A DNA stretch of 54,118 nt, from NCBI GenBank assembly GCA_021399395.1, contig JAAFKJ010000081.1, forward strand, positions 1-54,118, in the 5' to 3' direction. A program made the translations under genes and the position numbers. Source of the DNA: Candidatus Heimdallarchaeota archaeon. Lineage in GTDB: Archaea > Asgardarchaeota > Heimdallarchaeia > Heimdallarchaeales > Heimdallarchaeaceae. Below the pieces are notes generated by a model that was not told the origin of the DNA, made no database searches, and saw only the letters and a program-made list of their open reading frames with translations. This document shows, one piece after another, positions 2,470 to 44,105 of the stretch; the stretch's first letter is position 1; the number at the start of each line of letters is the position of its first letter.

Positions 2470-3261
2470 ATGTCTCAGATTCAAATAATCCCAATTCCTT
2501 CAGTAAAGATAATTGAAATGAAAGATGATTTGTTCTCCATCTTACTTGAATCTTTAAAACAAAGTACCATACATTTGGAAAATGATGATATCTTGGTTAT
2601 TGCCAGTAAAGTGGTTGCAGTTGCAGAAGAAAATATAGTATTCTATTCCTCATTAAATCCTTCAGTTGAAGCTATTGAAATAGCCAAAAAAGCACATATG
2701 GATCCGGAATTTGCACAAGTTATTCTAGACGAATCTAACGGTAATTATACTGGATCTGTACCAGGTGCAATAACAACTTTGAATCAGTATGGACTTCTAG
2801 CAAATGCGGGTGCGGATCAATCTAATGCAGGCGAAAAGCAAGTTATTCTCTTACCTGAAGATTGTAAAAAATCAGCTGAAGAACTTCACAAGAAGATATT
2901 AGAGCAAATGGGTTCTTATGTAGGAATAATCATTGCAGATTCTAGAACAACACCTTTGCGATTAGGTACTGTAGGGTGTGCATTAGCTACATATGGATTT
3001 GAAGCTCTTTTAGATGAAAGAGGAAGTGATGATCTTTTTGGTAGAAAAATGCATATCACAGTTCGTGCAATTGCAGATCAATTGGCTACAGCTGCTGAAA
3101 TTGTAATGGGTGAAACCAACGAAAGAACACCATTTGCTGTTATAAGGGGATATCCTATTAACCGAATAACAAATAATGAAGAAGTAGACCTGAATACACA
3201 AATTACAGCTGAAGAGTGCATGTTTATTGGTCCATTTGTGAGAAAACAGAAGAAGGGATAA
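2470..3261 (+). CDS. cofE: CofE-like gamma-glutamyl ligase (F420-0:L-glutamate ligase family)
   Basis: Family blocks are present: LVIASKVVAVAEE, ANAGADQSN, IIIADSRTTPLRLGTVGCAL, and DERGSDDLFGRKMHITVRAIADQLATAAEIVMGETNERTPFAVIRGY. Confidence 0.75.
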   Translation: MSQIQIIPIPSVKIIEMKDDLFSILLESLKQSTIHLENDDILVIASKVVAVAEENIVFYSSLNPSVEAIEIAKKAHMDPEFAQVILDESNGNYTGSVPGAITTLNQYGLLANAGADQSNAGEKQVILLPEDCKKSAEELHKKILEQMGSYVGIIIADSRTTPLRLGTVGCALATYGFEALLDERGSDDLFGRKMHITVRAIADQLATAAEIVMGETNERTPFAVIRGYPINRITNNEEVDLNTQITAEECMFIGPFVRKQKKG

Positions 3262-31342: not shown

Positions 31343-33118
31343 ATGACACAAGAAAATATTAGAAATATAGATGAATTGTTGGAAAATACAACCGTTCTAG
31401 TGGAGACTATAGCTTCTGAAATTGTACATTCTACGGATAAAATCTACGCTAGTTATCCTCCTGGTGAAATTGGCTACAATCTTTTTGAGTTCAAAAATGA
31501 TAAATTCCTCAGAGAATTTACAGATAACTTCGATAAAATAAAATTAAAAATTGAAAAGGATATTGCAAGTCTACCCTTTGAAAAAGAGAATGAAGTTCTC
31601 ATTTTAGCTAATCTATTGACTGAACTAAAGGAATATGATTTAGCTGTACAAATTTATGATTATCTTACAAAATATAATCCAGAAAACCGTTTTGCTTGGG
31701 CAAATTTAATCTCTATTTATATTCATAAAGGTCAGCATGATAAGGCGATGGAATGTTATCTCCACCTTCCTCCTGATTTTCTTGAACATGCAAACAATGA
31801 GAAGAAGGATTCATCCGCAAATGCCTACAGAATACTGAATATCTCTACTGCCTACCCATTACATACATCAATAAGTTCTCTTGGTCGTCGTGCTCAGACT
31901 TCATCAGATCTTCAGCAACACTTTGAGCAAGAATTGCGTGATCTCTATACAAACAAGGATTTTGTAAATGGTCAAGAAGCTTTAGCAAATGGAAATACTG
32001 ATGAAGCCTTAATTCTGTTTTCCAGTGTGGTTCTCAAACAACCAGATAGCCATGTTCTTCTTTTCTTTACGGGAAAAGCGGCGTTAGATGGACAGCATTA
32101 TTTGATTGCAGAAGAAAATATCAAAAAAGCAATTCAAATAAAGAACGATATCCCAGAATACTGGAATGAGTTAGCAGATTGTTTCTTCTTACAAAGGAAA
32201 AATGAACAGGCTATAAAATCTTTAAAAACAGCTTTAACCTTAGATTCAACCTGCTTAGAGTGCTGGAATTTAGCTGGAAAAACTTTTTCCACTATTGAAT
32301 CTATGAATGAGTACGAATATTTCATTAAACAAGCACAATTGATGTCTTCAGCGGAAGCAATACTGAGTTTTGTTGATGGGTTGATGAGCAAAAAAAGATT
32401 TGATAATGCTCTAGAGGTTTTACAGATTGGAATATCAAAATTCCCAGAAAATATTCAGATTCTTGAGAACTTAGCTTTAGTTTATGAACGAATGGGGAAA
32501 ATTGATGATGCAATTGGAACTTATGAAGAATTGTTGATGACTGGAAAATCTGTACAAAAATATTTACAGAAAATAACTTCCATTCTCACTGTTTTACATG
32601 ATGATAAAAGACTGGTTAGAATACTGAAGATGGTATCCTCTTACTTGCCATGGGATGAAACAACTCTATGGAATAAAATTGGAGACTTATTAATGAGGGC
32701 AAAAGATTACTTGGGTGCAAGTGAAGCATTCCGTAAAGTAATTTCTTTCGATCCTGATGATTCTCGAATTCAATTCAACTTGGGTCTCGCATACCAAGAG
32801 CTTTCACTTTTCAAGAAAGCTGAAGAAACTTATCGCAAAGTACTTGAATTAAATCCAACAGATCACGCGGCTTTAAACAACCTAGGAAATGTGCTCAAAG
32901 AAATGAAACGTTATGACGAATCTATTGAATCTTATCAAACTGCAATAGATATTGAACCTGACAAAGCTATTTCTTGGGCAAATCTTGGTATTCTCTATGA
33001 AGAGCTTAAACTGAAAAATGAAGCGAAAGAATGTTATCAAAAAGCAAAAGACATTGCTATTAAAAGCAAAGATTATAAAACAGCTGCAAGATTCGAAGAG
33101 TGGGAAAATTCAATATGA
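31343..33118 (+). CDS. Tetratricopeptide-repeat (TPR) protein
   Basis: Multiple 34-aa TPR units, clearest at the C-terminus: WNKIGDLLMRAKDYLGASEAFRKVISFDPDD, QFNLGLAYQELSLFKKAEETYRKVLELNPTD, LNNLGNVLKEMKRYDESIESYQTAIDIEPD, WANLGILYEELKLKNEAKECYQKA. Confidence 0.8.
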   Translation: MTQENIRNIDELLENTTVLVETIASEIVHSTDKIYASYPPGEIGYNLFEFKNDKFLREFTDNFDKIKLKIEKDIASLPFEKENEVLILANLLTELKEYDLAVQIYDYLTKYNPENRFAWANLISIYIHKGQHDKAMECYLHLPPDFLEHANNEKKDSSANAYRILNISTAYPLHTSISSLGRRAQTSSDLQQHFEQELRDLYTNKDFVNGQEALANGNTDEALILFSSVVLKQPDSHVLLFFTGKAALDGQHYLIAEENIKKAIQIKNDIPEYWNELADCFFLQRKNEQAIKSLKTALTLDSTCLECWNLAGKTFSTIESMNEYEYFIKQAQLMSSAEAILSFVDGLMSKKRFDNALEVLQIGISKFPENIQILENLALVYERMGKIDDAIGTYEELLMTGKSVQKYLQKITSILTVLHDDKRLVRILKMVSSYLPWDETTLWNKIGDLLMRAKDYLGASEAFRKVISFDPDDSRIQFNLGLAYQELSLFKKAEETYRKVLELNPTDHAALNNLGNVLKEMKRYDESIESYQTAIDIEPDKAISWANLGILYEELKLKNEAKECYQKAKDIAIKSKDYKTAARFEEWENSI

Positions 33119-33654
33119 GTTCCTCTAATGAGAAACAACCTCCAGAGTGGCAAGAAGTACAACTCAAAATGGCAACAATTTTAGAAAATAATAGTTTTGA
33201 AATTTGGAAGGAACGTTCTATTGCTAATAGGAGAGTTGATATTTTAGCTAAACGTGCTTACAAGAACAAGACTTACTATATTATATTTGAGTTCAAACAT
33301 TATGAGAATGTAACCGGAGGTGTAGAAGACAAATTTCTGGAACAACTACGTGATTATCTGAAACTATTTATTGAACGAGAATTGAGAAGAAAAGGTTTTG
33401 ATCATGTATCTAAGAATTATGTTTTTATTGGATATCTAGTTCTTTCCAAAGACTATGGAATATATAAGAATAGACGAAAGAATTGGAGAAAAAACAAACT
33501 TTTTCCTGAAGATAAAGATTTAGAATCTATTTGGAAAAGGAACTTATACCTATTCAGTTCTACAGAGAAGTATATCCGTCCTAATCTCGAATCAATTGGA
33601 CTCACATTTTATTCTCAATCAACAATAGAAGATTTTACTACTAAAGAAATATGA
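33115..33654 (+). CDS. PD-(D/E)xK (restriction-endonuclease-like) fold protein
   Basis: RRVDILAKR followed 10 residues later by YYIIFEFKHYE gives a D...E-x-K arrangement. The ATG at 33115 overlaps the TPR gene stop (ATGA). The track start at 33100 is a non-ATG codon upstream. Confidence 0.4.
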   Translation: MSSSNEKQPPEWQEVQLKMATILENNSFEIWKERSIANRRVDILAKRAYKNKTYYIIFEFKHYENVTGGVEDKFLEQLRDYLKLFIERELRRKGFDHVSKNYVFIGYLVLSKDYGIYKNRRKNWRKNKLFPEDKDLESIWKRNLYLFSSTEKYIRPNLESIGLTFYSQSTIEDFTTKEI

Positions 33655-33688: not shown

Positions 33689-34603
33689 ATGAGTGTTGAC
33701 TTAACTCGATTCAAAAATGATCTATATTCGATACAGATACTTGAAGAAGGTGTGAGTCTCTATAGTGAAAAATTTGGAGAATTTCTAAATATAGACGATG
33801 TTCTTGTTTTTGGGTTTATTTCTGCGCTCTATAGTTATACATATGCTATCGGTCATGAAGAAGTCAAGTCAATAGATTTTGGAAGTTGTAAGTTCCTTTT
33901 TAGTAAATTATTTGATGACAGACTCCTCGTAGTAATTGCTAAAGATGAAATCTCACATGAAAATGAACAAATTTTGTTGAAAAATATCACTTTGCGATAT
34001 GAAATTTTAACAGATGACAAATCCATAGGTCAAATAACGTCACTTCTTGAAATTGAAGATACCATCATACCTCTTGACATAGTTGCTGAAATTAGAAAGA
34101 AAAGACATAAAGTACAAGAGGAAATTGCTATGCCAGTGGATCTCCCTATGATCCCTGAAATTCAAATACCTGCTATAAAATTTGAAGAATTTTTTGTAGA
34201 AATGCTAACTGAGGAAACACAACTTTCTCCAGAAAAAACAAATACAATTAAGAAGACTTTAACCAACTTCTTTCTTGGATATAAAACATTAATATCAAGT
34301 CTTTTTGCAATCGCTAAAGAAGACCACCTTATATCATTTGTATTTAGCAGACAACCTTTTGATGAAATCTACCCTTTAGTTCAGTATATTATTACCAATC
34401 CTTCAGAAATTAATGTTAGCAAAGAAGTATCACAAAGTCATATTAAACAGGTAAAAATCTCTGATAAAAATTATTTCGTACTAATCTATCTTTCAAAAGA
34501 ACAAAATACTAAATCAGTAGTTTTTAGCAAAAATAAAGGAGAGCTCGAAGCTCTCACCCCTCATCTTAAAAGAATTTCAGCATTCGTTGAAAAAATGATT
34601 TAA
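33689..34603 (+). CDS. Hypothetical two-lobed protein with longin/Roadblock-like N- and C-terminal regions
   Basis: N-terminus: YSIQILEEGVSLYSEKF (beta-beta), DDVLVFGFISALYSYTYAIGH (helix), VKSIDFGSCKFLFSKLFDDRLLVVIAKDE (three strands), then a helix. The C-terminal lobe has a comparable alternation (HLISFVFSR...YFVLIYLSKEQNTKSVVFSK...LKRISAFVEKMI). This is judged by eye only. Confidence 0.35.
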   Translation: MSVDLTRFKNDLYSIQILEEGVSLYSEKFGEFLNIDDVLVFGFISALYSYTYAIGHEEVKSIDFGSCKFLFSKLFDDRLLVVIAKDEISHENEQILLKNITLRYEILTDDKSIGQITSLLEIEDTIIPLDIVAEIRKKRHKVQEEIAMPVDLPMIPEIQIPAIKFEEFFVEMLTEETQLSPEKTNTIKKTLTNFFLGYKTLISSLFAIAKEDHLISFVFSRQPFDEIYPLVQYIITNPSEINVSKEVSQSHIKQVKISDKNYFVLIYLSKEQNTKSVVFSKNKGELEALTPHLKRISAFVEKMI

Positions 34604-34710
34604 TGCAGAAACATTTGCAGTTTTATTATTCTCTGAGTTTAAATACTCATTTCAGTCATATCTGATGAATTCACGAGAATAAAGATAAGATTGATATACT
34701 ATTAATTCTA

Positions 34711-35115
34711 GTGGTTACACAAATATTGGTGGATTTAATGAGTCTATCTGGACAACAAATCGAACAAATGTTACACGAGTTTGAATCAAATACTGAAGGA
34801 GTTTTAGGATGTTCAATAATCTATGCAAAAGATGCATTACTGCTAGCAGAATCATCACAAAAATTTGAAAGGCTCGTGATTCAATGGTTAAGTGAGAAAA
34901 TGCTCTCATTGGCTAAAGAGTCATTACAACAATTGATGAAAGAATTCACTCTCATGAGTGTTACTATCGAAGAAAAGGACCACTTTGTTTATCTTCGACC
35001 AATAGGTGATGAATATTACGCCGTTATAATAACCACAAAAGAAGAAAATCGAGGATTATTAGAGCATAATATCAAAAGATTATTGCAAAGATTAACCCCG
35101 ATTATGATAACTTAA
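34711..35115 (+). CDS. Roadblock/LC7 (MglB-like) domain protein
   Basis: Characteristic layout: IEQMLHEFESNTEGVLGCSIIYAKDALLLAES, then a long helix, then LMSVTIEEKDHFVYLRPIGDEYYAVIITTKEENRGLLEHNIKRLLQRL. The start (GTG 34711 or ATG 34738) is uncertain. Confidence 0.6.
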   Translation: MVTQILVDLMSLSGQQIEQMLHEFESNTEGVLGCSIIYAKDALLLAESSQKFERLVIQWLSEKMLSLAKESLQQLMKEFTLMSVTIEEKDHFVYLRPIGDEYYAVIITTKEENRGLLEHNIKRLLQRLTPIMIT

Positions 35116-35131
35116 AATAAACTTACTGAGG

Positions 35132-35527
35132 TTGAAAGTTGTGGATGTAACAACTCTAAAAGTATTAGCAAAAATGGCAAGTGGAGAAGAAGGACCAAAT
35201 GCTAGATTCCAGTTCATGTCTCCTGATACTAAAGGGATAATATGTTCTTGTTCAACTATAGAAGAACTATATGACTGTATAGTTGACCTCGAACCGGAGG
35301 TTTTGCAAATTCATGTTTGTTCTTGTGAGGATTTTGACCAATCTACTGGAACAAGAGATCTTGCATTCTACATTCACTATGTTTTTGGAGATGCTGAACT
35401 TTCAATGAAAATCTATAGTGCTGCTGAAAGATATGCTGAGGATTCAGACAAACTAAAACTTGAAATTGGGAATCTTCTTTTCACAAGATTGTTGAATTAT
35501 AGTGAAATAGCACTAATTCCTGATTAA
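35132..35527 (+). CDS. Hypothetical protein (131 aa, Cys-containing)
   Basis: A clean ORF 16 nt after the Roadblock gene. gaggt at 35128-35132 could serve as an SD for an in-frame GTG at 35141. No family confidently recognised. Confidence 0.4.
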   Translation: MKVVDVTTLKVLAKMASGEEGPNARFQFMSPDTKGIICSCSTIEELYDCIVDLEPEVLQIHVCSCEDFDQSTGTRDLAFYIHYVFGDAELSMKIYSAAERYAEDSDKLKLEIGNLLFTRLLNYSEIALIPD

Positions 35528-35595: not shown

Positions 35596-37713
35596 TTGAG
35601 TTCAATGTGTCCAAAGTGCAAAGGCCATGGTAAAATTATAAAAGAGAAAATGACTTGTCCTAGTTGTCTTGGAATAGGAAAAACTTCATTTTCGCTGGGT
35701 GGAGATGAAAAGGGAAACATCTGTGAAAAATGTGATGGGAAAGGCAAGATAATCTTACGTGAAAAATGTCCAGTTTGTGGTGGTAAAAAGACTGTTAAGT
35801 ATTGTAGTTCATGCAAGAAAATTTTAACTGAACCATCCTCTACTGGTTTGTGTTCAAAGTGTGAAGATAGAAAAGTTCCTTTGGTATATGTGCTGAAACC
35901 ACCTATCGATTCTCAACTAATTCGTAAAGAAATGTTGCTTCTTTCAAGAGTTGAAAGCGTTAAGAAAATAGGCATTTTTGTTTCTGCAGGTCAAAATCTT
36001 AATGTTTTGATTAGGACCAAAGATATCACGCAAGATTATGCTTGGGATATCGGTGAAGAAGTAATTGTTAAAGTCACTTTCATTAATGATCAAGGCAAGC
36101 TTTCTGGTGTTCCTGTACATCTAGAAGATTATATAACTGAATCTTTGAGAGGAAAGGTTCGAAAATTACAAATAAAAAATCTAAATGAGGATATGGAAGG
36201 ATCATTTATATCCATAAATGCTCAAGTAGTTTCCATTCTCCAAACTTCTGGACCAACAAGGTTTACTTTGGTAGATCCTTCTGGAACCATTAGTTCTGCA
36301 GCATTTATCAAACCAGGGGAGAGAGCTTTTCCAGAAATTGGTGATGATATGGTTGTTTCTGTATTTGGTGAAATCAATAAACATAGAGATGTTCTTCAAA
36401 TAGAAATCAGAGATATGGAAGAATTGGATACTTCAGAAACTGCTGGAATTCTGAAAGAAATTGAAAAAGCGATTGATAAGAAATCAACTCCTAAGGATTT
36501 TAAATTTTCTATACAAAGCGACTTACTCGAGAAGTTAAAACCAGATTTAATTAGTGTAGCTAAAAGAATAAGGAAGGCAGTTTTGACAGGGCAACCTATC
36601 TACATTCGCAATCATGCCGATGCCGATGGAACAGTGGCAGGTTTTACAGTGCAACATGCAATTCAGAAACTAATGTATCAAGAAGGATATGATGCTGATA
36701 CCATTAGAATTCGTCTTAAACGTCTCCCAAACAAACCACCATTCTTTGATGCTATTGATGTGACAAAAGATTTGGATTTTGCATTATCAGATAAAGTGAG
36801 ATTCGGGGATAAGCTCCCTCTATTTCTCTGTATGGATTTTGGTTCAAGTACAGAATCTTTATTCCCCTACCTCCAGATAAAAGCATTGGGTTTGGAGATT
36901 CTTGTTGTTGATCACCATTTCCCCGATAAAGAAATCAAGGAATTAGTTGATATTCATGTGAACCCATATTTTGTTGGTGGTGGATACGAGCTTTCAGCTG
37001 GAATGTTAGGGTTTGAATTAGCACGAATTATTTATCCTGATGTCCATAATGAACTGCAACACTTACCAGCTATTGCAGGATTAATGGATAGAGTAGGCGG
37101 GGAAGAAATCAAACATTATATCAAATTAGCTGAAAAGAAGGGATACTCAGTTGAAGATCTTAAGAAAATAGGACTTGCAATAGATTTTGAGGTGTATCAG
37201 CTTCGTTTTTCAGAAGGTTATAATCTTATTAAAATTCTATTTGGGGTTGAAACTGATCCAGAATGGCATTCCAACATGTATAATCTAATTGGTAATGAAA
37301 CCAAAGGAATGATGGATAAGGCTTTCAGAAATGCGCTACCAAACTGTAAGAAAAGCGAGTTAGAAAACAAAGTTATACTCGTAACTATAGATGTAGAGCT
37401 TTACTCTCATAGATTTACTTTTCCAAATCCTGGAAAACTGACCGGAATGATTTTTGATTATTATTGTAAGCAAAATGAAGGAAAAGCTGTGGTTACTCTA
37501 GGAGAAGGTCCTGATTTTATCATTCTAAGATCTAAAGGTCTTAAGATCAATTTTCCTGATGCAGTTAAACTAATGCAGAAAAAACTACCAAACGCAGGTG
37601 TTGAAGGTGGAGGGCACGAGGTGGTAGGCTCCTTCAAGTACTATGAGGGTGAAGCGAAAAAAATAAAGAAATTCTTTGTGGAGTTTTTAGCTAAACTAGA
37701 GGTGTCAGAATAG
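35596..37713 (+). CDS. RecJ-like DHH/DHHA1 phosphoesterase with N-terminal DnaJ-type CxxCxGxG zinc finger, S1-like and OB-fold domains
   Basis: CxxCxG repeats: CPKCKGHG, CPSCLGIG, CEKCDGKG, CPVCGGKK, followed by CSSC...CSKC. S1-like IGIFVSAGQNLNVLIRTKD...VIVKVTFINDQGKLSG. OB-like FISINAQVVSILQTSGPTRFTLVDPSGTISSAAF...VFGEINKHRDVLQIEI. DHH motifs HADADG, CMDFG, VVDHHFP. DHHA1 GGGH. Confidence 0.75.
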   Translation: MSSMCPKCKGHGKIIKEKMTCPSCLGIGKTSFSLGGDEKGNICEKCDGKGKIILREKCPVCGGKKTVKYCSSCKKILTEPSSTGLCSKCEDRKVPLVYVLKPPIDSQLIRKEMLLLSRVESVKKIGIFVSAGQNLNVLIRTKDITQDYAWDIGEEVIVKVTFINDQGKLSGVPVHLEDYITESLRGKVRKLQIKNLNEDMEGSFISINAQVVSILQTSGPTRFTLVDPSGTISSAAFIKPGERAFPEIGDDMVVSVFGEINKHRDVLQIEIRDMEELDTSETAGILKEIEKAIDKKSTPKDFKFSIQSDLLEKLKPDLISVAKRIRKAVLTGQPIYIRNHADADGTVAGFTVQHAIQKLMYQEGYDADTIRIRLKRLPNKPPFFDAIDVTKDLDFALSDKVRFGDKLPLFLCMDFGSSTESLFPYLQIKALGLEILVVDHHFPDKEIKELVDIHVNPYFVGGGYELSAGMLGFELARIIYPDVHNELQHLPAIAGLMDRVGGEEIKHYIKLAEKKGYSVEDLKKIGLAIDFEVYQLRFSEGYNLIKILFGVETDPEWHSNMYNLIGNETKGMMDKAFRNALPNCKKSELENKVILVTIDVELYSHRFTFPNPGKLTGMIFDYYCKQNEGKAVVTLGEGPDFIILRSKGLKINFPDAVKLMQKKLPNAGVEGGGHEVVGSFKYYEGEAKKIKKFFVEFLAKLEVSE

Positions 37714-37714
37714 A

Positions 37715-39208
37715 TTAAATCTCTTCTTCATTTTCCTCTAATACTTCTTCCTTCTTTTTTCTTCTGAAGACTTTACCTATTCCACTCTTTGTTTTGGTAT
37801 AAGCCCCTCCAATGGCTCCAGCTACTTTCTTCGAAGGAGAAATAAAAACCTTTGTTGCAGCTGATTTTACACCAAATTTCACTCCTTCTTTCAGAACCAT
37901 ATTCGCATATATTTTCCAGGAATCTTCACCTCGTTTTATTCTATCTATTCTTTCAATTAACTCATCAAAAGGAGGTAAGAATTCATATCTAAATAATTCA
38001 GGAGATGCATAATTTACAAATCTTTTAGAATATTGATAATTTATAATGAAGAATATCATCATAACTGGGATGATGATCACTGCCATTTTGTCCTTAAAAT
38101 AAACTAGACCATTCTTATCAAACACTTCACCAAACACGTCGTAGAAAATGTCATTATCTGTAATTAACTGCAAAAATGTTACATGATAGCTGAGAATTAA
38201 GCCCATTACTGCCATTAGAACGCCTAATGGGGTCATAAATCTAGGAATTTTGAGCAAAAACCATGGTTTTTCTTCCTCAGTTTCAGTTATTTCTCGATTC
38301 TTCTTTCTCTTCCTTTTTGGTAGTTCCTCTTCGATTAAAATTATCTCGGTCTCAATTCCTTTTTCTATTCTTTTGACCTTTATGGCATATCTCGAAACAG
38401 TATAGAATATTAGAAACACGGCTGTTATGATGCTTCCAATATTGTCACTAGGTTCATTCCCTGTTGCCGTGTAGATTGTTAGTTTCCATAGAGTGAATGA
38501 TGAGAAAACATAGAAGAATGCTAGAATTGTATAGAATACATCATCACGCTTTCCCAGAACAAAAATGATTATATTGGTTAATATGGCTGCAACTATCACA
38601 AAACATGCTGATACAAGTAAAAATATCTGACGGTCAACGAAAATTGAGTAATAAAGCAAGTATCCTCCCATAGCTGCATTTAGGATGGAGAGAATAAAGG
38701 CTACTAGACTGAAGATTATTGTACCTTCGTTAGCCTGTTTTCCAAGAAACATAATACTCCCAAGAACTTTATTTCCCCAGAAATTTCTTTGGACAGAGAA
38801 AGTTAAGAAAATAGATACAAGTATCCATCCGAAATATCCGATAGCTGTTACAAATGGAGAAATAAGGGGAAGAAAATAGAGCAACACAGTTCCGCCAGCT
38901 GCGGTAATCAAAGCTGGACCTATCCAATATTTTATCGGATACTTAACAAAGAAAATCCCAAATACAATGTAAGTTACGGCTACTGATAATTCAATAAATA
39001 TTAGAATATCGGCAGCTAACACCATTCCAGTATAGTAGGTCTCAGTTCCTGTCAATTGATTTGCGATAAGATAAAATATTGTTGATGTTACAGAAATTAA
39101 GAAAAATGCAATTGTGTAGAAAATATACCTTTTACTAAAAAGAACTCTGAAACCACTAGTGAAGATATTCTTTATGAATTTGTAAAAAGCTTTCTCAACA
39201 TATGACAT
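37715..39208 (-). CDS. Polytopic integral membrane protein with a central Lys/Glu-rich loop
   Basis: Many hydrophobic helices are interrupted by EEELPKRKRKKNREITETEEEKPW. The tail is charged. No motif recognised. Confidence 0.5.
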   Translation of the reverse strand: MSYVEKAFYKFIKNIFTSGFRVLFSKRYIFYTIAFFLISVTSTIFYLIANQLTGTETYYTGMVLAADILIFIELSVAVTYIVFGIFFVKYPIKYWIGPALITAAGGTVLLYFLPLISPFVTAIGYFGWILVSIFLTFSVQRNFWGNKVLGSIMFLGKQANEGTIIFSLVAFILSILNAAMGGYLLYYSIFVDRQIFLLVSACFVIVAAILTNIIIFVLGKRDDVFYTILAFFYVFSSFTLWKLTIYTATGNEPSDNIGSIITAVFLIFYTVSRYAIKVKRIEKGIETEIILIEEELPKRKRKKNREITETEEEKPWFLLKIPRFMTPLGVLMAVMGLILSYHVTFLQLITDNDIFYDVFGEVFDKNGLVYFKDKMAVIIIPVMMIFFIINYQYSKRFVNYASPELFRYEFLPPFDELIERIDRIKRGEDSWKIYANMVLKEGVKFGVKSAATKVFISPSKKVAGAIGGAYTKTKSGIGKVFRRKKKEEVLEENEEEI

Positions 39209-40226: not shown

Positions 40227-43049
40227 GTGCCACGCATTTTTAGGTTCAAAAAATTTCTGTTCATTTTTCTAATGGTCTGTTGTATGTTTACATATACGAC
40301 ATTTGCACAGAAAGAAGAACTTGCACCAATAAGCACTCCTTCAAAAAAACTAGACTTAGAAGAAATAATAAAAGGAAAACAGTTTCGAGATGAGTTTCTT
40401 GAATCGAATTCAAATGAAGAGTTCAGAGTATTTGTGAAGACTAATAACAACAGAGCGACAAATCTTCTGAAACGAGTTGGTAGAAATGTTAATACTTTCT
40501 ATAGTTATTCAGGGACTGCAATATCGATATCTAAAGCAAATTTACTGGAGCTAATCTTTGATGGATTAGTGATTGGTGTTTGGGAAAATTCAAAGATTTA
40601 TACTTCAGAAGGTGATTATAGTCTTACTTCTTTGAATTATACTCAAGAAGTAGCTAATTATACTGAAATGGTATCAGCTGATACCTTGTGGAGTAGTGGT
40701 TTATATGGACGCAATACAAAAGTAGCAATTTTAGATTCAGGGATAAAGACCGATCATCCAGCACTAAATGTTACAATGAGTGACATAAACAGAATTACCA
40801 ATGCATGGAATTTCATAGGTAATAATGCTGATGTAGAAGATGATCATGGGCATGGAACAAGCGTTGCAGGCATAATAGGTGGAAATGGACTTTATGGTTA
40901 TGATCGAGGCGTAGCACCCAATTGCAGTTTCATGATAGCTAAAATACTTGATTATAATGGAATGGGAACGCTAGAATTATTGATACAGGGAATTGATTGG
41001 GCTATAGAAAATAACGCGGATATCATCAATCTCTCACTAGGGACACTAGTCACTGACAAAGGATCTCCTGATATAGAAGCAGTAAATAATGCGGTTGGAA
41101 ACGATACAATAGTTTGTGTTGCGGCTGGAAATTCCAGAGGGAAAGAAGAATTCGGTTATAATGACATGTATACTATATTATCTCCGGGAATTGCTAAACA
41201 AGCTATAACCGTGGGAGCAATAGATAGCAATCGTATTTTATACAAACATAGTGGAGCTGGTCCAGTAGCTGTAAACTATGATGATTATTCTGATAAATTT
41301 GTTTTTGATGATATTAATCTGGTAAATACTTGGTTAAAACCTGATGTGGTAGCACCTGGGGTGATGATAAATACAACTGCTTTTGAAAGCCAAAAAACAG
41401 CTGTTGTTTCTGGAACAAGTTTTTCCACAGCTGTTGTTTCAGGAATTTGTTCATTATTGAAAGAATTTTTTTCGGATAACAAACCATCTACATTCAAAGC
41501 TTCTTTTCTTGAAACTGCAATTGATATATCTCCAGAAATAGAGACACCTTTAGGTGAATCTATAGAATTAACAATCTCTTCAAAATACCAGGGAGCAGGC
41601 CTTGTTAATGTAACTGCAGCAGGTATTTTCTTAATCAGTCCTCCCCCTATAACAATTTGGCCAAACAGAGTACCTTTTACAAAAGAAGTTTTCCTTCTAA
41701 ATGAATATGATTCTTTTTTCATTAGCGTGTTTGTAAACAGTCCAATTAATTCTCTTTCAATACGCTATTATGCTACATTGAGACCTTCTCTGAGTTTTCT
41801 TAATGTTCCCAGATCCCCGGAAATTGGCCAGTATGATATCTTGATAAGTCTGGATACAACCACAGGAGATGCTGGTCAAACAGACTTTTCTGTAAATTTC
41901 AATGATGGTTTTAGGGATTATGAACTTGAGGTTTCTCTTTATATTGCAAAAGGAAAAGGAAGAATTTTGTATGATTGTAATGAGGTGGGTGAAGATATTC
42001 ATTATTCAATGTATGGGAATCTAAACACCCTTTTAGACATATCCAGATATCTCGGTTTTGTCCCTTCTGTTTTATCTAAAGATGGAATACCTACACATTT
42101 TTCAGATCTTAACTTGAACCATTTTGAAGCAATTGCGCTTATTAACCACAACAGTTCATCGTTGTATGAGTTTACGAGTACTGATGAAGCCGCGCTTCTA
42201 GACTATATCCTTCCTGATGGTGAGTATAATGGTGGGTCAATAATATTCTTACCCACAAGAAGTAGTGATATTTTAGGCTTGAACTCAATGCTGGAGTCTT
42301 TTAACATTACTTATAGTTCGTTATTAATTGAAAATGAATCATTGGATTTATCTTCATTGGATCATCCACTTGTAACCAGTTATAATTCAATTGATGTTCT
42401 TTCATTGCCATCTCCTCTAGAAGTTTTGAAGGAAAATGATACAGTTAATACAATTGCTGATAGATTTGTTTACTTGGATTCACGACTAAGTGGAGGATCT
42501 CTTATATTAGCATGTAATAACATTGAAATGTTCTTGAATTCTCCTTACCTGTTCAATGCTCTAACTTCCACTTATCAGGAAAAGCAATCATCACTTAATT
42601 TTGGGGATAATTATCAGATGTACGAAAATATTTTAGCATCTTCTGCAGTCTCAGATATTTCTGTGAACTATTCAATTAGTACCACTGAAATTAAAATGAA
42701 TACTGAAGTACAAGTTACAATGTCTACTAGTAATAACTTTGGTCCGATAATTGGATGGGATTTCTTCCTAACATTGGAGACTTTGCCACAATCAAAATAC
42801 AGGATTGAGGTGAATTATTATGAACTATTAGATTATAATAATGGAACTTATACTTTCTTTTTTTCTCCTGGAGACTACCCTATTCCCGGAGGAACTTATC
42901 TGCTCTCTATTCGCTCTCCTTATGAGACCAAAACTTGGTCTGTGTACGTAATTGATGATTATTCTTGGGGACCAACACTTGTTACAATATCTATTGCAGT
43001 TTGTGTTGCATTTCTTATAGTGGTTCGAATAAGAATTTCTAAGAAATAA
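40227..43049 (+). CDS. Secreted subtilisin-like serine protease (peptidase S8) with large C-terminal extension and TM anchor
   Basis: Signal peptide FKKFLFIFLMVCCMFTYTTFAQ. Catalytic Asp VAILDSGI, His DDHGHGTSVAG, Asn AAGNS, Ser SGTSFSTAVVSG. C-terminal anchor LVTISIAVCVAFLIVVRIRISKK. Confidence 0.85.
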   Translation: MPRIFRFKKFLFIFLMVCCMFTYTTFAQKEELAPISTPSKKLDLEEIIKGKQFRDEFLESNSNEEFRVFVKTNNNRATNLLKRVGRNVNTFYSYSGTAISISKANLLELIFDGLVIGVWENSKIYTSEGDYSLTSLNYTQEVANYTEMVSADTLWSSGLYGRNTKVAILDSGIKTDHPALNVTMSDINRITNAWNFIGNNADVEDDHGHGTSVAGIIGGNGLYGYDRGVAPNCSFMIAKILDYNGMGTLELLIQGIDWAIENNADIINLSLGTLVTDKGSPDIEAVNNAVGNDTIVCVAAGNSRGKEEFGYNDMYTILSPGIAKQAITVGAIDSNRILYKHSGAGPVAVNYDDYSDKFVFDDINLVNTWLKPDVVAPGVMINTTAFESQKTAVVSGTSFSTAVVSGICSLLKEFFSDNKPSTFKASFLETAIDISPEIETPLGESIELTISSKYQGAGLVNVTAAGIFLISPPPITIWPNRVPFTKEVFLLNEYDSFFISVFVNSPINSLSIRYYATLRPSLSFLNVPRSPEIGQYDILISLDTTTGDAGQTDFSVNFNDGFRDYELEVSLYIAKGKGRILYDCNEVGEDIHYSMYGNLNTLLDISRYLGFVPSVLSKDGIPTHFSDLNLNHFEAIALINHNSSSLYEFTSTDEAALLDYILPDGEYNGGSIIFLPTRSSDILGLNSMLESFNITYSSLLIENESLDLSSLDHPLVTSYNSIDVLSLPSPLEVLKENDTVNTIADRFVYLDSRLSGGSLILACNNIEMFLNSPYLFNALTSTYQEKQSSLNFGDNYQMYENILASSAVSDISVNYSISTTEIKMNTEVQVTMSTSNNFGPIIGWDFFLTLETLPQSKYRIEVNYYELLDYNNGTYTFFFSPGDYPIPGGTYLLSIRSPYETKTWSVYVIDDYSWGPTLVTISIAVCVAFLIVVRIRISKK

Positions 43050-43461
43050 GAATTTGGTAAACGTTTTTACTATATTTTGCGAGTATAGTCATTCCAAGTG
43101 CTAAACTGTAGATGTCTTTTGATGCTGCTAAAACTATATATTGATCAAGATTTAGAAGAATGACAAACCCTTCTGTTCCTTTGATTATAACCTGATCGAG
43201 ATTTCCACATTTGATTTGGTTTACAGTTTGTTGACCCGCTGAATTTAAGGCGGAAGCTAGTGCTGACATTATAACTTGATCTGTACTTTTTTCAGCGAAA
43301 AATGCGAGCTCTTGTCCTTCCGAACTTACCACTGCTATGGCACTTAAACTACATTCCTTTGAGATATCTCTTAATATACTAATTAGATTAGTTTTCTTCT
43401 CTTGGGATAAATCATCCATCATTAAGCTAGAACAACTCTGTAAAATTATAAACTTTCGCAT
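43039..43461 (-). CDS. Roadblock/LC7 (MglB-like) domain protein
   Basis: LISILRDISKECSLSAIAVVSSEGQELAFFAE, then the helix VIMSALASALNSAGQQTVNQI, then LDQVIIKGTEGFVILLNLDQYIVLAASKD. Its 3' end overlaps the convergent protease gene by 11 nt. Confidence 0.6.
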   Translation of the reverse strand: MRKFIILQSCSSLMMDDLSQEKKTNLISILRDISKECSLSAIAVVSSEGQELAFFAEKSTDQVIMSALASALNSAGQQTVNQIKCGNLDQVIIKGTEGFVILLNLDQYIVLAASKDIYSLALGMTILAKYSKNVYQILIS

Positions 43462-43469
43462 ATTTTGAA

Positions 43470-44105
43470 CTAAATCAATTTGTCTTTATGTTTCTTGCAA
43501 ATCGGAGTTGAAACCTCTAAATCCTTATCTTTAGTTTTGTAAACCCAAACATTTAACGCAAAGGCAGGCTCACCACAAATGTAACAAGATTTTTCCTCGT
43601 AAATTGGTTTCTTTTTTCTCGGCATACGATTCCAATGATCTTTGAAATCTTCAAAAGTATCGGTGTATTTCTTGTGAAGTCTTTGAGCTTCTTCATCCTC
43701 ACTAGGTTTATTCCCTGTGGAAAAAACAATATAGCTCCAAACTGCGATGGAAAGTATATTCCCAAATGACTTTAATGGAATATAATGATAACCTGTAATG
43801 TTAATTTGTTGATAACTTTTTTCCATAATGAAGTCTATCATAATATCTTTTCTATGTGAAGTCTGTCCTATGTCTAATTGATACTTCCTGGTAACACGAA
43901 CAATCCTCTTGGAGAGCTCTTCAAATAACCAATCTACGGTTCTTTGACTGCCTTTTCTTCTTATGTTGAGAAATTTGATTTCCAAAATGGGAAAAGATAT
44001 ATCGATGAATATCTCGCTAACGGCTGCATTTGCTTTTCTTACCAAATACTCGTATAAACCATTCGGAAAGGTAAATTTCTTAGGACTAGATGCCACTTTC
44101 TTCAC
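43470..44105 (-). CDS. Hypothetical protein (211 aa) with C-terminal Cys/His pairs
   Basis: A clean ORF ending 8 nt upstream of the Roadblock gene. The C-terminus CYICGEP...(x23)...CKKH could bind a metal. No family recognised. Confidence 0.4.
   Translation of the reverse strand: MKKVASSPKKFTFPNGLYEYLVRKANAAVSEIFIDISFPILEIKFLNIRRKGSQRTVDWLFEELSKRIVRVTRKYQLDIGQTSHRKDIMIDFIMEKSYQQINITGYHYIPLKSFGNILSIAVWSYIVFSTGNKPSEDEEAQRLHKKYTDTFEDFKDHWNRMPRKKKPIYEEKSCYICGEPAFALNVWVYKTKDKDLEVSTPICKKHKDKLI

Follow-up and report, generated by a model that had tools for sequence, protein, structure and literature searches.

Gene organization and conservation of the locus

The window analysed here is a 54,118-nucleotide stretch of DNA (G+C content about 34%) from Candidatus Heimdallarchaeota archaeon, a member of the Heimdallarchaeaceae, and forms one contig (JAAFKJ010000081.1) of a genome of 2.8 Mb and 82% completeness (assembly GCA_021399395.1). 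Its forward strand carries three consecutive genes for a two-domain longin and roadblock protein, a Roadblock/LC7 protein and a small third protein, which may together form a platform for a small GTPase. The open reading frames (ORFs) are at 33689–34603 (304 amino acids), 34711–35115 (134 amino acids, GTG start) and 35132–35527 (131 amino acids, TTG start), with gaps of 107 and 16 nt; these positions and gaps agree with an earlier description made from the letters alone (hereafter, the sequence-only reading). Alignment with homologues does, however, shorten the second and third products, as the homologues begin at the internal ATG 34738 (125 residues) and at GTG 35141 (128 residues), which widens the gaps to about 134 and 25 nt. 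Judged by these aligned starts, the true Roadblock product probably has 125 residues rather than 134. The products are referred to here as p304 (33689–34603), Robl125 (34738–35115) and p128 (35141–35527); a 497-residue multi-pass membrane protein encoded on the reverse strand at 37715–39208 is referred to as TM497.

The home family, the Heimdallarchaeaceae (f1), is one of four families in its order (f1–f4), f3 and f4 being two sister families of f1, and f5 and f7 are further families in the class. The three genes are contiguous in 29–30 of 30 Heimdallarchaeaceae genomes, so that the gene order is conserved among relatives as had been anticipated; contiguity in some 30 related genomes argues that the grouping is not due to chance. 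Every home-family locus examined, including all 20 from the genus and others from further genera, has an uninterrupted block in which genes for a TPR protein and a protein of up to 184 residues (p184) precede the trio. In one genus p304 is divergent from the Robl125–p128 pair and still adjacent to it, on a short contig. Full-length p304 is found only in the home family (29 of 30 genomes, five genera), and the matches elsewhere in the phylum are generic ones to its N-terminal lobe. The three genes constitute a real module specific to the Heimdallarchaeaceae.

p304 combines a longin domain with a roadblock-type domain

No Pfam or NCBIfam family matches p304. An AlphaFold2 (AF2) model built from 24 homologues has a mean predicted local distance difference test score (pLDDT) of 68.7 and a predicted template modelling score (pTM) of 0.46, and the mutual orientation of the two lobes is therefore undefined. 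Within the N lobe (approximately residues 1–124), DSSP assigns the order strand-strand-helix-strand-strand-strand-helix to residues 12–110 of the model, and within the C lobe (176–304) residues 181–303 are modelled as helix-strand-strand-helix-strand-strand-strand-helix. The linker (125–175) is poorly modelled and disordered, with a helix predicted at 129–140 and a short strand at 169–172 (pLDDT below 50), neither of which is docked in the model; both coincide with nearly invariant blocks of the family alignment. The modelled architecture is thus that of a canonical longin domain, a conserved linker and a roadblock-type domain.

Structural searches bear out, together with this topology, the two-lobed alpha/beta longin- or Roadblock-like fold that had been proposed for the 304-residue protein. 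The best Foldseek matches spanning both lobes are to Mon1, Ccz1, Fuzzy and Inturned (E 1.5e-7 to 1e-4), and these are followed by single-domain matches to LAMTOR2/3, MglB and an Asgard Roadblock. With VIA-align, which is independent of Foldseek, the N lobe scores Z 10.5–11.3 against the TRAPP, sigma-adaptin and Fuzzy longins, with roadblock chains tied with the longins within 1 Z unit, and the C lobe scores Z 9.7 against the roadblock domain of a Lokiarchaeal Rag-like GTPase. Over all single-lobe structural matches (longins, MglB, LAMTOR2/3, Asgard Roadblocks and the Lokiarchaeal Rag-like protein) Z lies between 9.7 and 11.3. The two-lobe alignments have a root-mean-square deviation (rmsd) of about 20 Å, so it is the domain order that is shared and not a rigid arrangement.

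At the level of sequence, a p304 profile compared with 1.8 billion representatives returned only eight strong relatives and, with weak scores, small Asgard longins matching the N lobe. Some of these longins resemble Pfam Fuz_longin_1 (PF19036), which covers longin domain 1 (LD1) of FUZ, MON1 and HPS1 and which matches three of the 24 p304 members (best E 0.0048, under the cut-off). When the N-lobe profile was made from the family only, the sole two matches among 177,635 PDB chains were to MON1, at E 0.2 (0.21). The extended profile, which includes distant Asgard relatives, reaches MON1 LD1 at E 5.6e-5; it contains single-domain Asgard longins that themselves resemble PF19036. Neither the whole-p304 profile nor that of the C lobe matches any of the solved chains. 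The expected profile relationship is found in part: the extended N-lobe profile reaches MON1 LD1, but no family cut-off is passed and the C lobe is unmatched. The N lobe is probably a longin of the MON1/FUZ/HPS1 LD1 type. In its beta1-beta2 loop an invariant Gly21 precedes a Val or Ile residue, and no arginine is invariant in this lobe.

Other Asgard proteins share parts of this architecture. A genus-conserved protein of about 680 residues (contig C102 of genome G000, 2697–3050) has an N-terminal longin domain akin to the N lobe of p304 (E 6e-6). Distant two-lobed relatives of p304 (286–301 residues, E 3e-14 to 5e-8) are encoded at three loci (L077, L078 and L013) directly after or near a gene for a Metallophos phosphoesterase.

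Robl125 is a divergent and highly conserved Roadblock protein

Against the Roadblock family PF03259, Robl125 scores 14.8 bits, below the cut-off of 23, and the family matches weakly in 14 of 19 Robl125 family members (best E 6.6e-4). The profile of the Robl125 family matches the solved Asgard Roadblocks over essentially its full length, with E values of 4e-4 for 9jue_D (residues 8–123) and 2e-3 for 7f8m_A (residues 1–123), and, more weakly, the C-terminal roadblock domains of Gtr2 and RagC and also MglC. The sequence-only reading had called this protein a canonical Roadblock/LC7 protein; its Roadblock nature is real, given the full-length profile matches to solved folds, but with PF03259 under the cut-off it is not canonical. 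On profile evidence, Robl125 is best described as a genuine but divergent Roadblock/LC7 protein.

The gene evolves more slowly than any other in the block, identity across the genus being 89–98% for Robl125 compared with 66–90% for p128 and 43–83% for p304. Single-copy orthologues are present in all four families of the order (E 1e-32 to 1e-39), and none was detected at E 1e-5 in the remainder of the class. The genome encodes seven Roadblock proteins besides Robl125. Profile-profile comparison of Robl125 with p304 revealed no relation to either lobe, and the two proteins are therefore not recent duplicates.

The 134-nt spacer in front of Robl125 (34604–34737) contains a hairpin and T-run just 3' of the p304 stop codon, a TTTAAATA box at 34638 and a GGTGG ribosome-binding-like site about 10 nt 5' of the ATG. 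It also contains a conserved non-coding motif resembling AAGATTGATATACTAT (34687–34702, forward strand), located 36–51 nt 5' of the ATG, which is kept across diverged members of the genus and family whereas the surrounding spacer varies. The hairpin, box and motif suggest that the spacer probably holds an internal promoter or regulatory site for Robl125 and p128.

p128 is a short DUF5752/OrfY-like protein

The third gene had been described as having no recognisable family, which is no longer tenable. PF19027 (DUF5752) matches 17 of 20 p128 members with a best E value of 8.2e-8; the copy in the window scores 11.8 bits on its own, under the cut-off of 23, and a homologue from f5 scores 38.4 bits. 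The AF2 model of p128 (pLDDT 78) superposes on OrfY of Thermoproteus tenax (PDB code: 4cso) with Z 9.9 and an rmsd of 2.7 over 94 aligned residues, the next match having Z 6.1. p128 covers about half of the DUF5752 profile, namely its N-terminal half (positions 20–105 of 208). It is a short DUF5752/OrfY-fold protein. OrfY is encoded in a trehalose-synthesis operon. The p128 alignment has invariant Cys35, Cys46, His58 and His79 and a nearly invariant Cys60, and this conservation is such that the invariant residues may form a metal site. Homologues of p128 occur in five families of the class (f1, f2, f3, f5 and f7).

TM497 is the conserved neighbour of the Roadblock gene

The informative conserved neighbour of the module is TM497, encoded just outside the interval 33689–35527 that was first noted. 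Alignment and hydropathy indicate about 8–9 hydrophobic segments, a basic loop, invariant motifs and a C-terminal tail (about residues 395–497) that is both basic and conserved, and p304, Robl125 and p128 are all acidic (net charges −12, −5 and −13). A look-up of TM497 by language model gave low-score leads only. Of the 11 genomes of the sister families f3 and f4 that could be assessed, 10 have a TM497 homologue within one gene of the Robl125 orthologue, with the two divergent in some and in tandem in others; the exception has a Ras-like GTPase gene directly after the Robl125 orthologue. From this linkage we propose that TM497 is the membrane partner of the Roadblock protein and may bind it.

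Further genes were noted around the Robl125 orthologues. In six f4 loci (L046, L047, L050, L054, L057 and L058) the gene on the other side of the orthologue encodes a conserved protein with a zinc ribbon at the N terminus, a disordered acidic stretch and a membrane domain at the C terminus. In f3 a gene of VTT/DedA type lies near the orthologue, as does a patatin phospholipase gene in L056. Two neighbours in the sister families were considered as equivalents of p304 and rejected, namely a 361-residue protein, which is unrelated, and one of 365–400 residues, which is a zinc-ribbon membrane protein and not a longin. Every f5 genome checked, all of one genus (for example G066, G074 and G071), has homologues of TM497 and of p128/DUF5752 on a single contig, separated by about 13–18 kb, and this co-location may be a remnant of an older linkage.

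The genes that flank the trio were identified as the sequence-only reading had described them, with a TPR protein and a nuclease-fold protein on one side and a RecJ-like nuclease on the other. Upstream of p304 and on the same strand, 31343–33654 encodes a TPR protein of 591 residues (Pfam TPR matches) and, overlapping it, a weakly PD-(D/E)XK-like protein of 179–184 residues (PDDEXK_9 at E 4e-4, under the cut-off). Both genes may be co-transcribed with p304, and it is uncertain that their products are part of the module; TPR-longin fusion proteins occur in Asgard archaea. The gene after p128 in the home family is usually that of the RecJ-like nuclease, which in the window occupies 35596–37713 on the forward strand and matches PDB 5yh1 at E 1.3e-97. 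In several members of the genus it is missing from the block, and there TM497 directly abuts p128; one such locus (among L028, L030 and L032) keeps a nuclease remnant of about 54 residues, which shows that this locus has lost the gene. A search at E 1e-20 did not detect the nuclease in four genomes that have no copy in the block (78–88% complete), and in a sister family its orthologue is on another contig. These genomic comparisons indicate that the RecJ-like neighbour is dispensable.

Small GTPases are encoded elsewhere in the genome

The sequence-only reading had remarked that no GTPase gene lies near the trio, and this proved correct by a genome search with PF00071, a Walker A scan and Pfam. 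No hidden GTPase was revealed in the window by the Walker A scan and Pfam, the Walker A motifs present belonging to XPD, an ABC ATPase and non-GTPase ORFs. Across the genome, PF00071 (Ras superfamily) has 35 matches. In the Lokiarchaeon MK-D1, genes for small GTPases generally share no operon with genes for roadblock or longin proteins (Tran et al. 2024; PMC10933270), and a missing linked GTPase is therefore expected rather than anomalous. The suggestion that the absence of a GTPase partner is itself unusual is thus not upheld, given the approximately 35 Ras-superfamily matches elsewhere in the genome and the precedent of MK-D1.

GTPase genes do adjoin relatives of the trio in other genomes. 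The Ras-like GTPase gene that follows the Robl125 orthologue in one sister-family genome (G044, L051:6212–6853) has an intact P-loop. No ATG, GTG or TTG codon precedes that P-loop, so either translation begins at an unusual codon or the 5' end of the gene is damaged. A distant two-lobed relative of p304 is encoded convergently with a 271-residue Rab-like GTPase that bears a coiled-coil tail. The GTPase beside a p128 homologue in a sister family (L038) was also considered as a guide to the client, and its best match here lies on a different contig.

Comparison with known longin and roadblock assemblies

The closest parallels of p304 are the tri-longin domain (TLD) subunits of Rab guanine nucleotide exchange factors (GEFs), found in Mon1–Ccz1, Fuzzy–Inturned (CPLANE) and HPS1–HPS4 (BLOC-3). 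Mon1 and Ccz1 consist of LD1, a canonical longin, a linker with alphaX-betaX, LD2 of roadblock type and LD3 of lamtor type (Klink et al.; PMC8833172). p304 has the order LD1-linker-LD2, its best two-lobe Foldseek matches are TLD subunits and its N-lobe profile reaches MON1 LD1. The predicted linker helix (129–140) and strand (169–172), at a pLDDT below 50, sit where TLD proteins carry alphaX-betaX, the motif that completes and bridges their LD3. The TLD subunits have three domains per chain, whereas p304 has two, and a third could at best be supplied by the Robl125 gene; moreover, Robl125 is a full roadblock and not a helix-lacking lamtor-type domain such as LD3. A second TLD-like (p304-like) subunit is absent from the cluster, and p304 differs further in that it lacks a Pfam match above the cut-off and its C lobe lacks a sequence match to solved chains.

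These likenesses would allow p304 and Robl125 to be seen as a split prokaryotic tri-longin unit, with LD1, a linker resembling alphaX/betaX and LD2 encoded by one gene and the third domain by the next, which would be a relative or surviving forerunner of Mon1–Ccz1, Fuzzy–Inturned and BLOC-3, anchored by a polytopic protein rather than by lipid binding. We regard this as a tentative idea that is quite improbable. In the collection of papers searched, none links tri-longin proteins with archaea, and the main text of Eme et al. 2023 makes no mention of longin, roadblock or Mon1.

The second group of relatives comprises the Asgard Roadblocks (Thor-RB, 7f8m; MK-D1 RB, 7yh1; Roadblock3, 9jue; PMC10933270), MglB and the Ragulator components LAMTOR2/3, which are dimeric platforms for small GTPases. 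Robl125 matches them by profile over its full length, and both lobes of p304 superpose on them with Z of about 9–10. Like the Asgard Roadblocks, Robl125 has no operon linkage to a GTPase, consistent with the same study, and in this it differs from the MglA/MglB module, in which the Roadblock gene is next to that of its cognate small GTPase. Unlike these relatives, Robl125 belongs to a separate, order-restricted orthogroup that remains under the Pfam cut-off. It is, furthermore, paired with a two-domain partner and a polytopic protein and not with MglA or a lipidated anchor of the LAMTOR1 type.

Proposed role of the module and alternatives

From the usual roles of these folds and from the gene linkage, we infer that the trio is a heteromeric platform that TM497 probably tethers to the membrane and that acts on a GTPase encoded elsewhere, and we consider the case for this reading to be about evenly balanced. 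In such an arrangement p304 and Robl125 would assemble through the edge-strand and helix pairing usual for longin and roadblock domains, and p128 may join them. The adjacent polytopic TM497 would hold the heteromeric platform at the cell membrane, where it would bind and regulate, as an exchange factor, GTPase-activating protein (GAP) or scaffold, one of the approximately 35 small GTPases encoded elsewhere.

The pairing of the 304-residue protein with the Roadblock protein, which the sequence-only reading had envisaged as a heterodimer, was examined by complex prediction. The p304–Robl125 pair scored 0.36, and the best of three controls scored 0.00; the runs agree in at least 20% of contacts, and the partner has a pLDDT of at least 66. 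Of 80 solved complexes, 58 reach the mark that the pair passes, as do 2 of 110 mismatched pairs; at scores of 0.60 or below, the mark is reached by only seven of the 80 solved complexes and by both passing mismatches. As roadblock dimers have already been solved, it may be resemblance and not binding that lets the pair pass. The envisaged heterodimer thus passes the mark, but weakly and with one run at 0.01, and the prediction lends it weak computational support.

Several observations weigh against the proposed platform. The predicted complex scores weakly, with 0.01 in one of three runs, and the p304 model is of only moderate confidence, with a linker below a pLDDT of 50. No PF00071 match lies on the 54-kb contig, and no candidate client emerged from the GTPases that adjoin relatives: the Ras-like GTPase of G044 has no clear orthologue here, its best match being about 40% identical among many paralogues. 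In GAP longins of the FLCN/SMCR8/NPRL2 type, a GP motif and an arginine finger lie around strands beta1-beta2 (PMC12290439), and the p304 alignment contains neither the GP motif nor the conserved arginine of the FLCN/SMCR8-type proteins. TM497 homologues outside the order have no roadblock neighbour detectable with local profiles and Pfam. The neighbours of p128 homologues outside the home family are unrelated (TauE with radical SAM, CGI-121 and, once, a Ras-like GTPase). Finally, gene order within a single family could partly be inherited synteny.

It is also possible, if somewhat unlikely, that the module is a longin/roadblock adaptor without any action on GTPases, serving TM497 or membrane and lipid handling directly. 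Longin domains in SNAREs and Roadblock proteins in dynein have roles of this non-GTPase kind. The home family has no linked GTPase, and the genes near the Robl125 orthologue in the sister families (TM497, the zinc-ribbon membrane protein, the VTT/DedA-type protein and the patatin phospholipase) point in the same direction. Non-GTPase roles of roadblock and longin domains are also mentioned by Tran et al. (PMC10933270). Most characterised longin/roadblock platforms nevertheless act on small GTPases, one Robl125 orthologue does adjoin a Ras-like GTPase, and the p304 N lobe most closely resembles the catalytic LD1 found in a Rab GEF, all of which favour the GTPase platform.

That the three genes are functionally independent, their adjacency being no more than synteny inherited within one archaeal family, appears distinctly unlikely to us. 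The whole 20-kb neighbourhood is indeed syntenic in close relatives, p304 is confined to one family and p128 homologues elsewhere have other neighbours. The block has, however, outlasted rearrangements of its flanks, in which TM497 and a HAD gene switch strand and the RecJ-like gene is lost, and an inversion leaves p304 and Robl125 adjacent; short intergenic distances are retained, and the Robl125–TM497 adjacency persists across families and orientations. A role in DNA repair or replication together with the TPR, PD-(D/E)XK-like and RecJ-like proteins and XPD is very unlikely, as the one-strand run from the TPR gene to the RecJ-like gene in most f1 genomes and the XPD, DinB and primase genes upstream are set against a RecJ-like gene that is dropped from the block in several genus members (a remnant in one, absent at E 1e-20 from four) and unlinked in a sister family, Robl125 orthologues outside f1 that lack TPR, nuclease or RecJ neighbours, and a PD-(D/E)XK assignment under the Pfam cut-off.

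Expansions of longin and roadblock proteins in Asgard archaea are already well known, and a longin-roadblock trio is of a kind to be expected there, though its arrangement is undescribed. What is new is the presence of single-copy Robl125 orthologues throughout the order, the order-wide linkage of Robl125 with TM497, the dispensability of the nuclease, the DUF5752/OrfY assignment of p128 and the sequence link of the p304 N lobe to MON1 LD1. Small GTPases, longin proteins and roadblock proteins are all numerous in Asgard archaea, and almost nothing ties a regulator to its partner, because the genes are rarely clustered. The locus offers a purifiable set of parts, comprising a Mon1-like two-domain protein, a highly conserved Roadblock, a small accessory protein and a candidate membrane anchor, which could serve to find the client GTPase. 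It also lets one ask whether the tri-longin architecture of eukaryotic Rab activators predates eukaryotes. Should the trio be merely another set of longin/roadblock paralogues, it would be an ordinary member of the known Asgard expansion.

A second Roadblock gene in the window

The window contains a second Roadblock gene on the reverse strand, within 43039–44105. Its product of 140 residues matches PF03259 at E 1.7e-8 and passes the cut-off. The gene starts 8 nt after that of a 211-residue protein without an assigned family, which has a C-terminal CxxC...CxxH motif and no Walker A motif.

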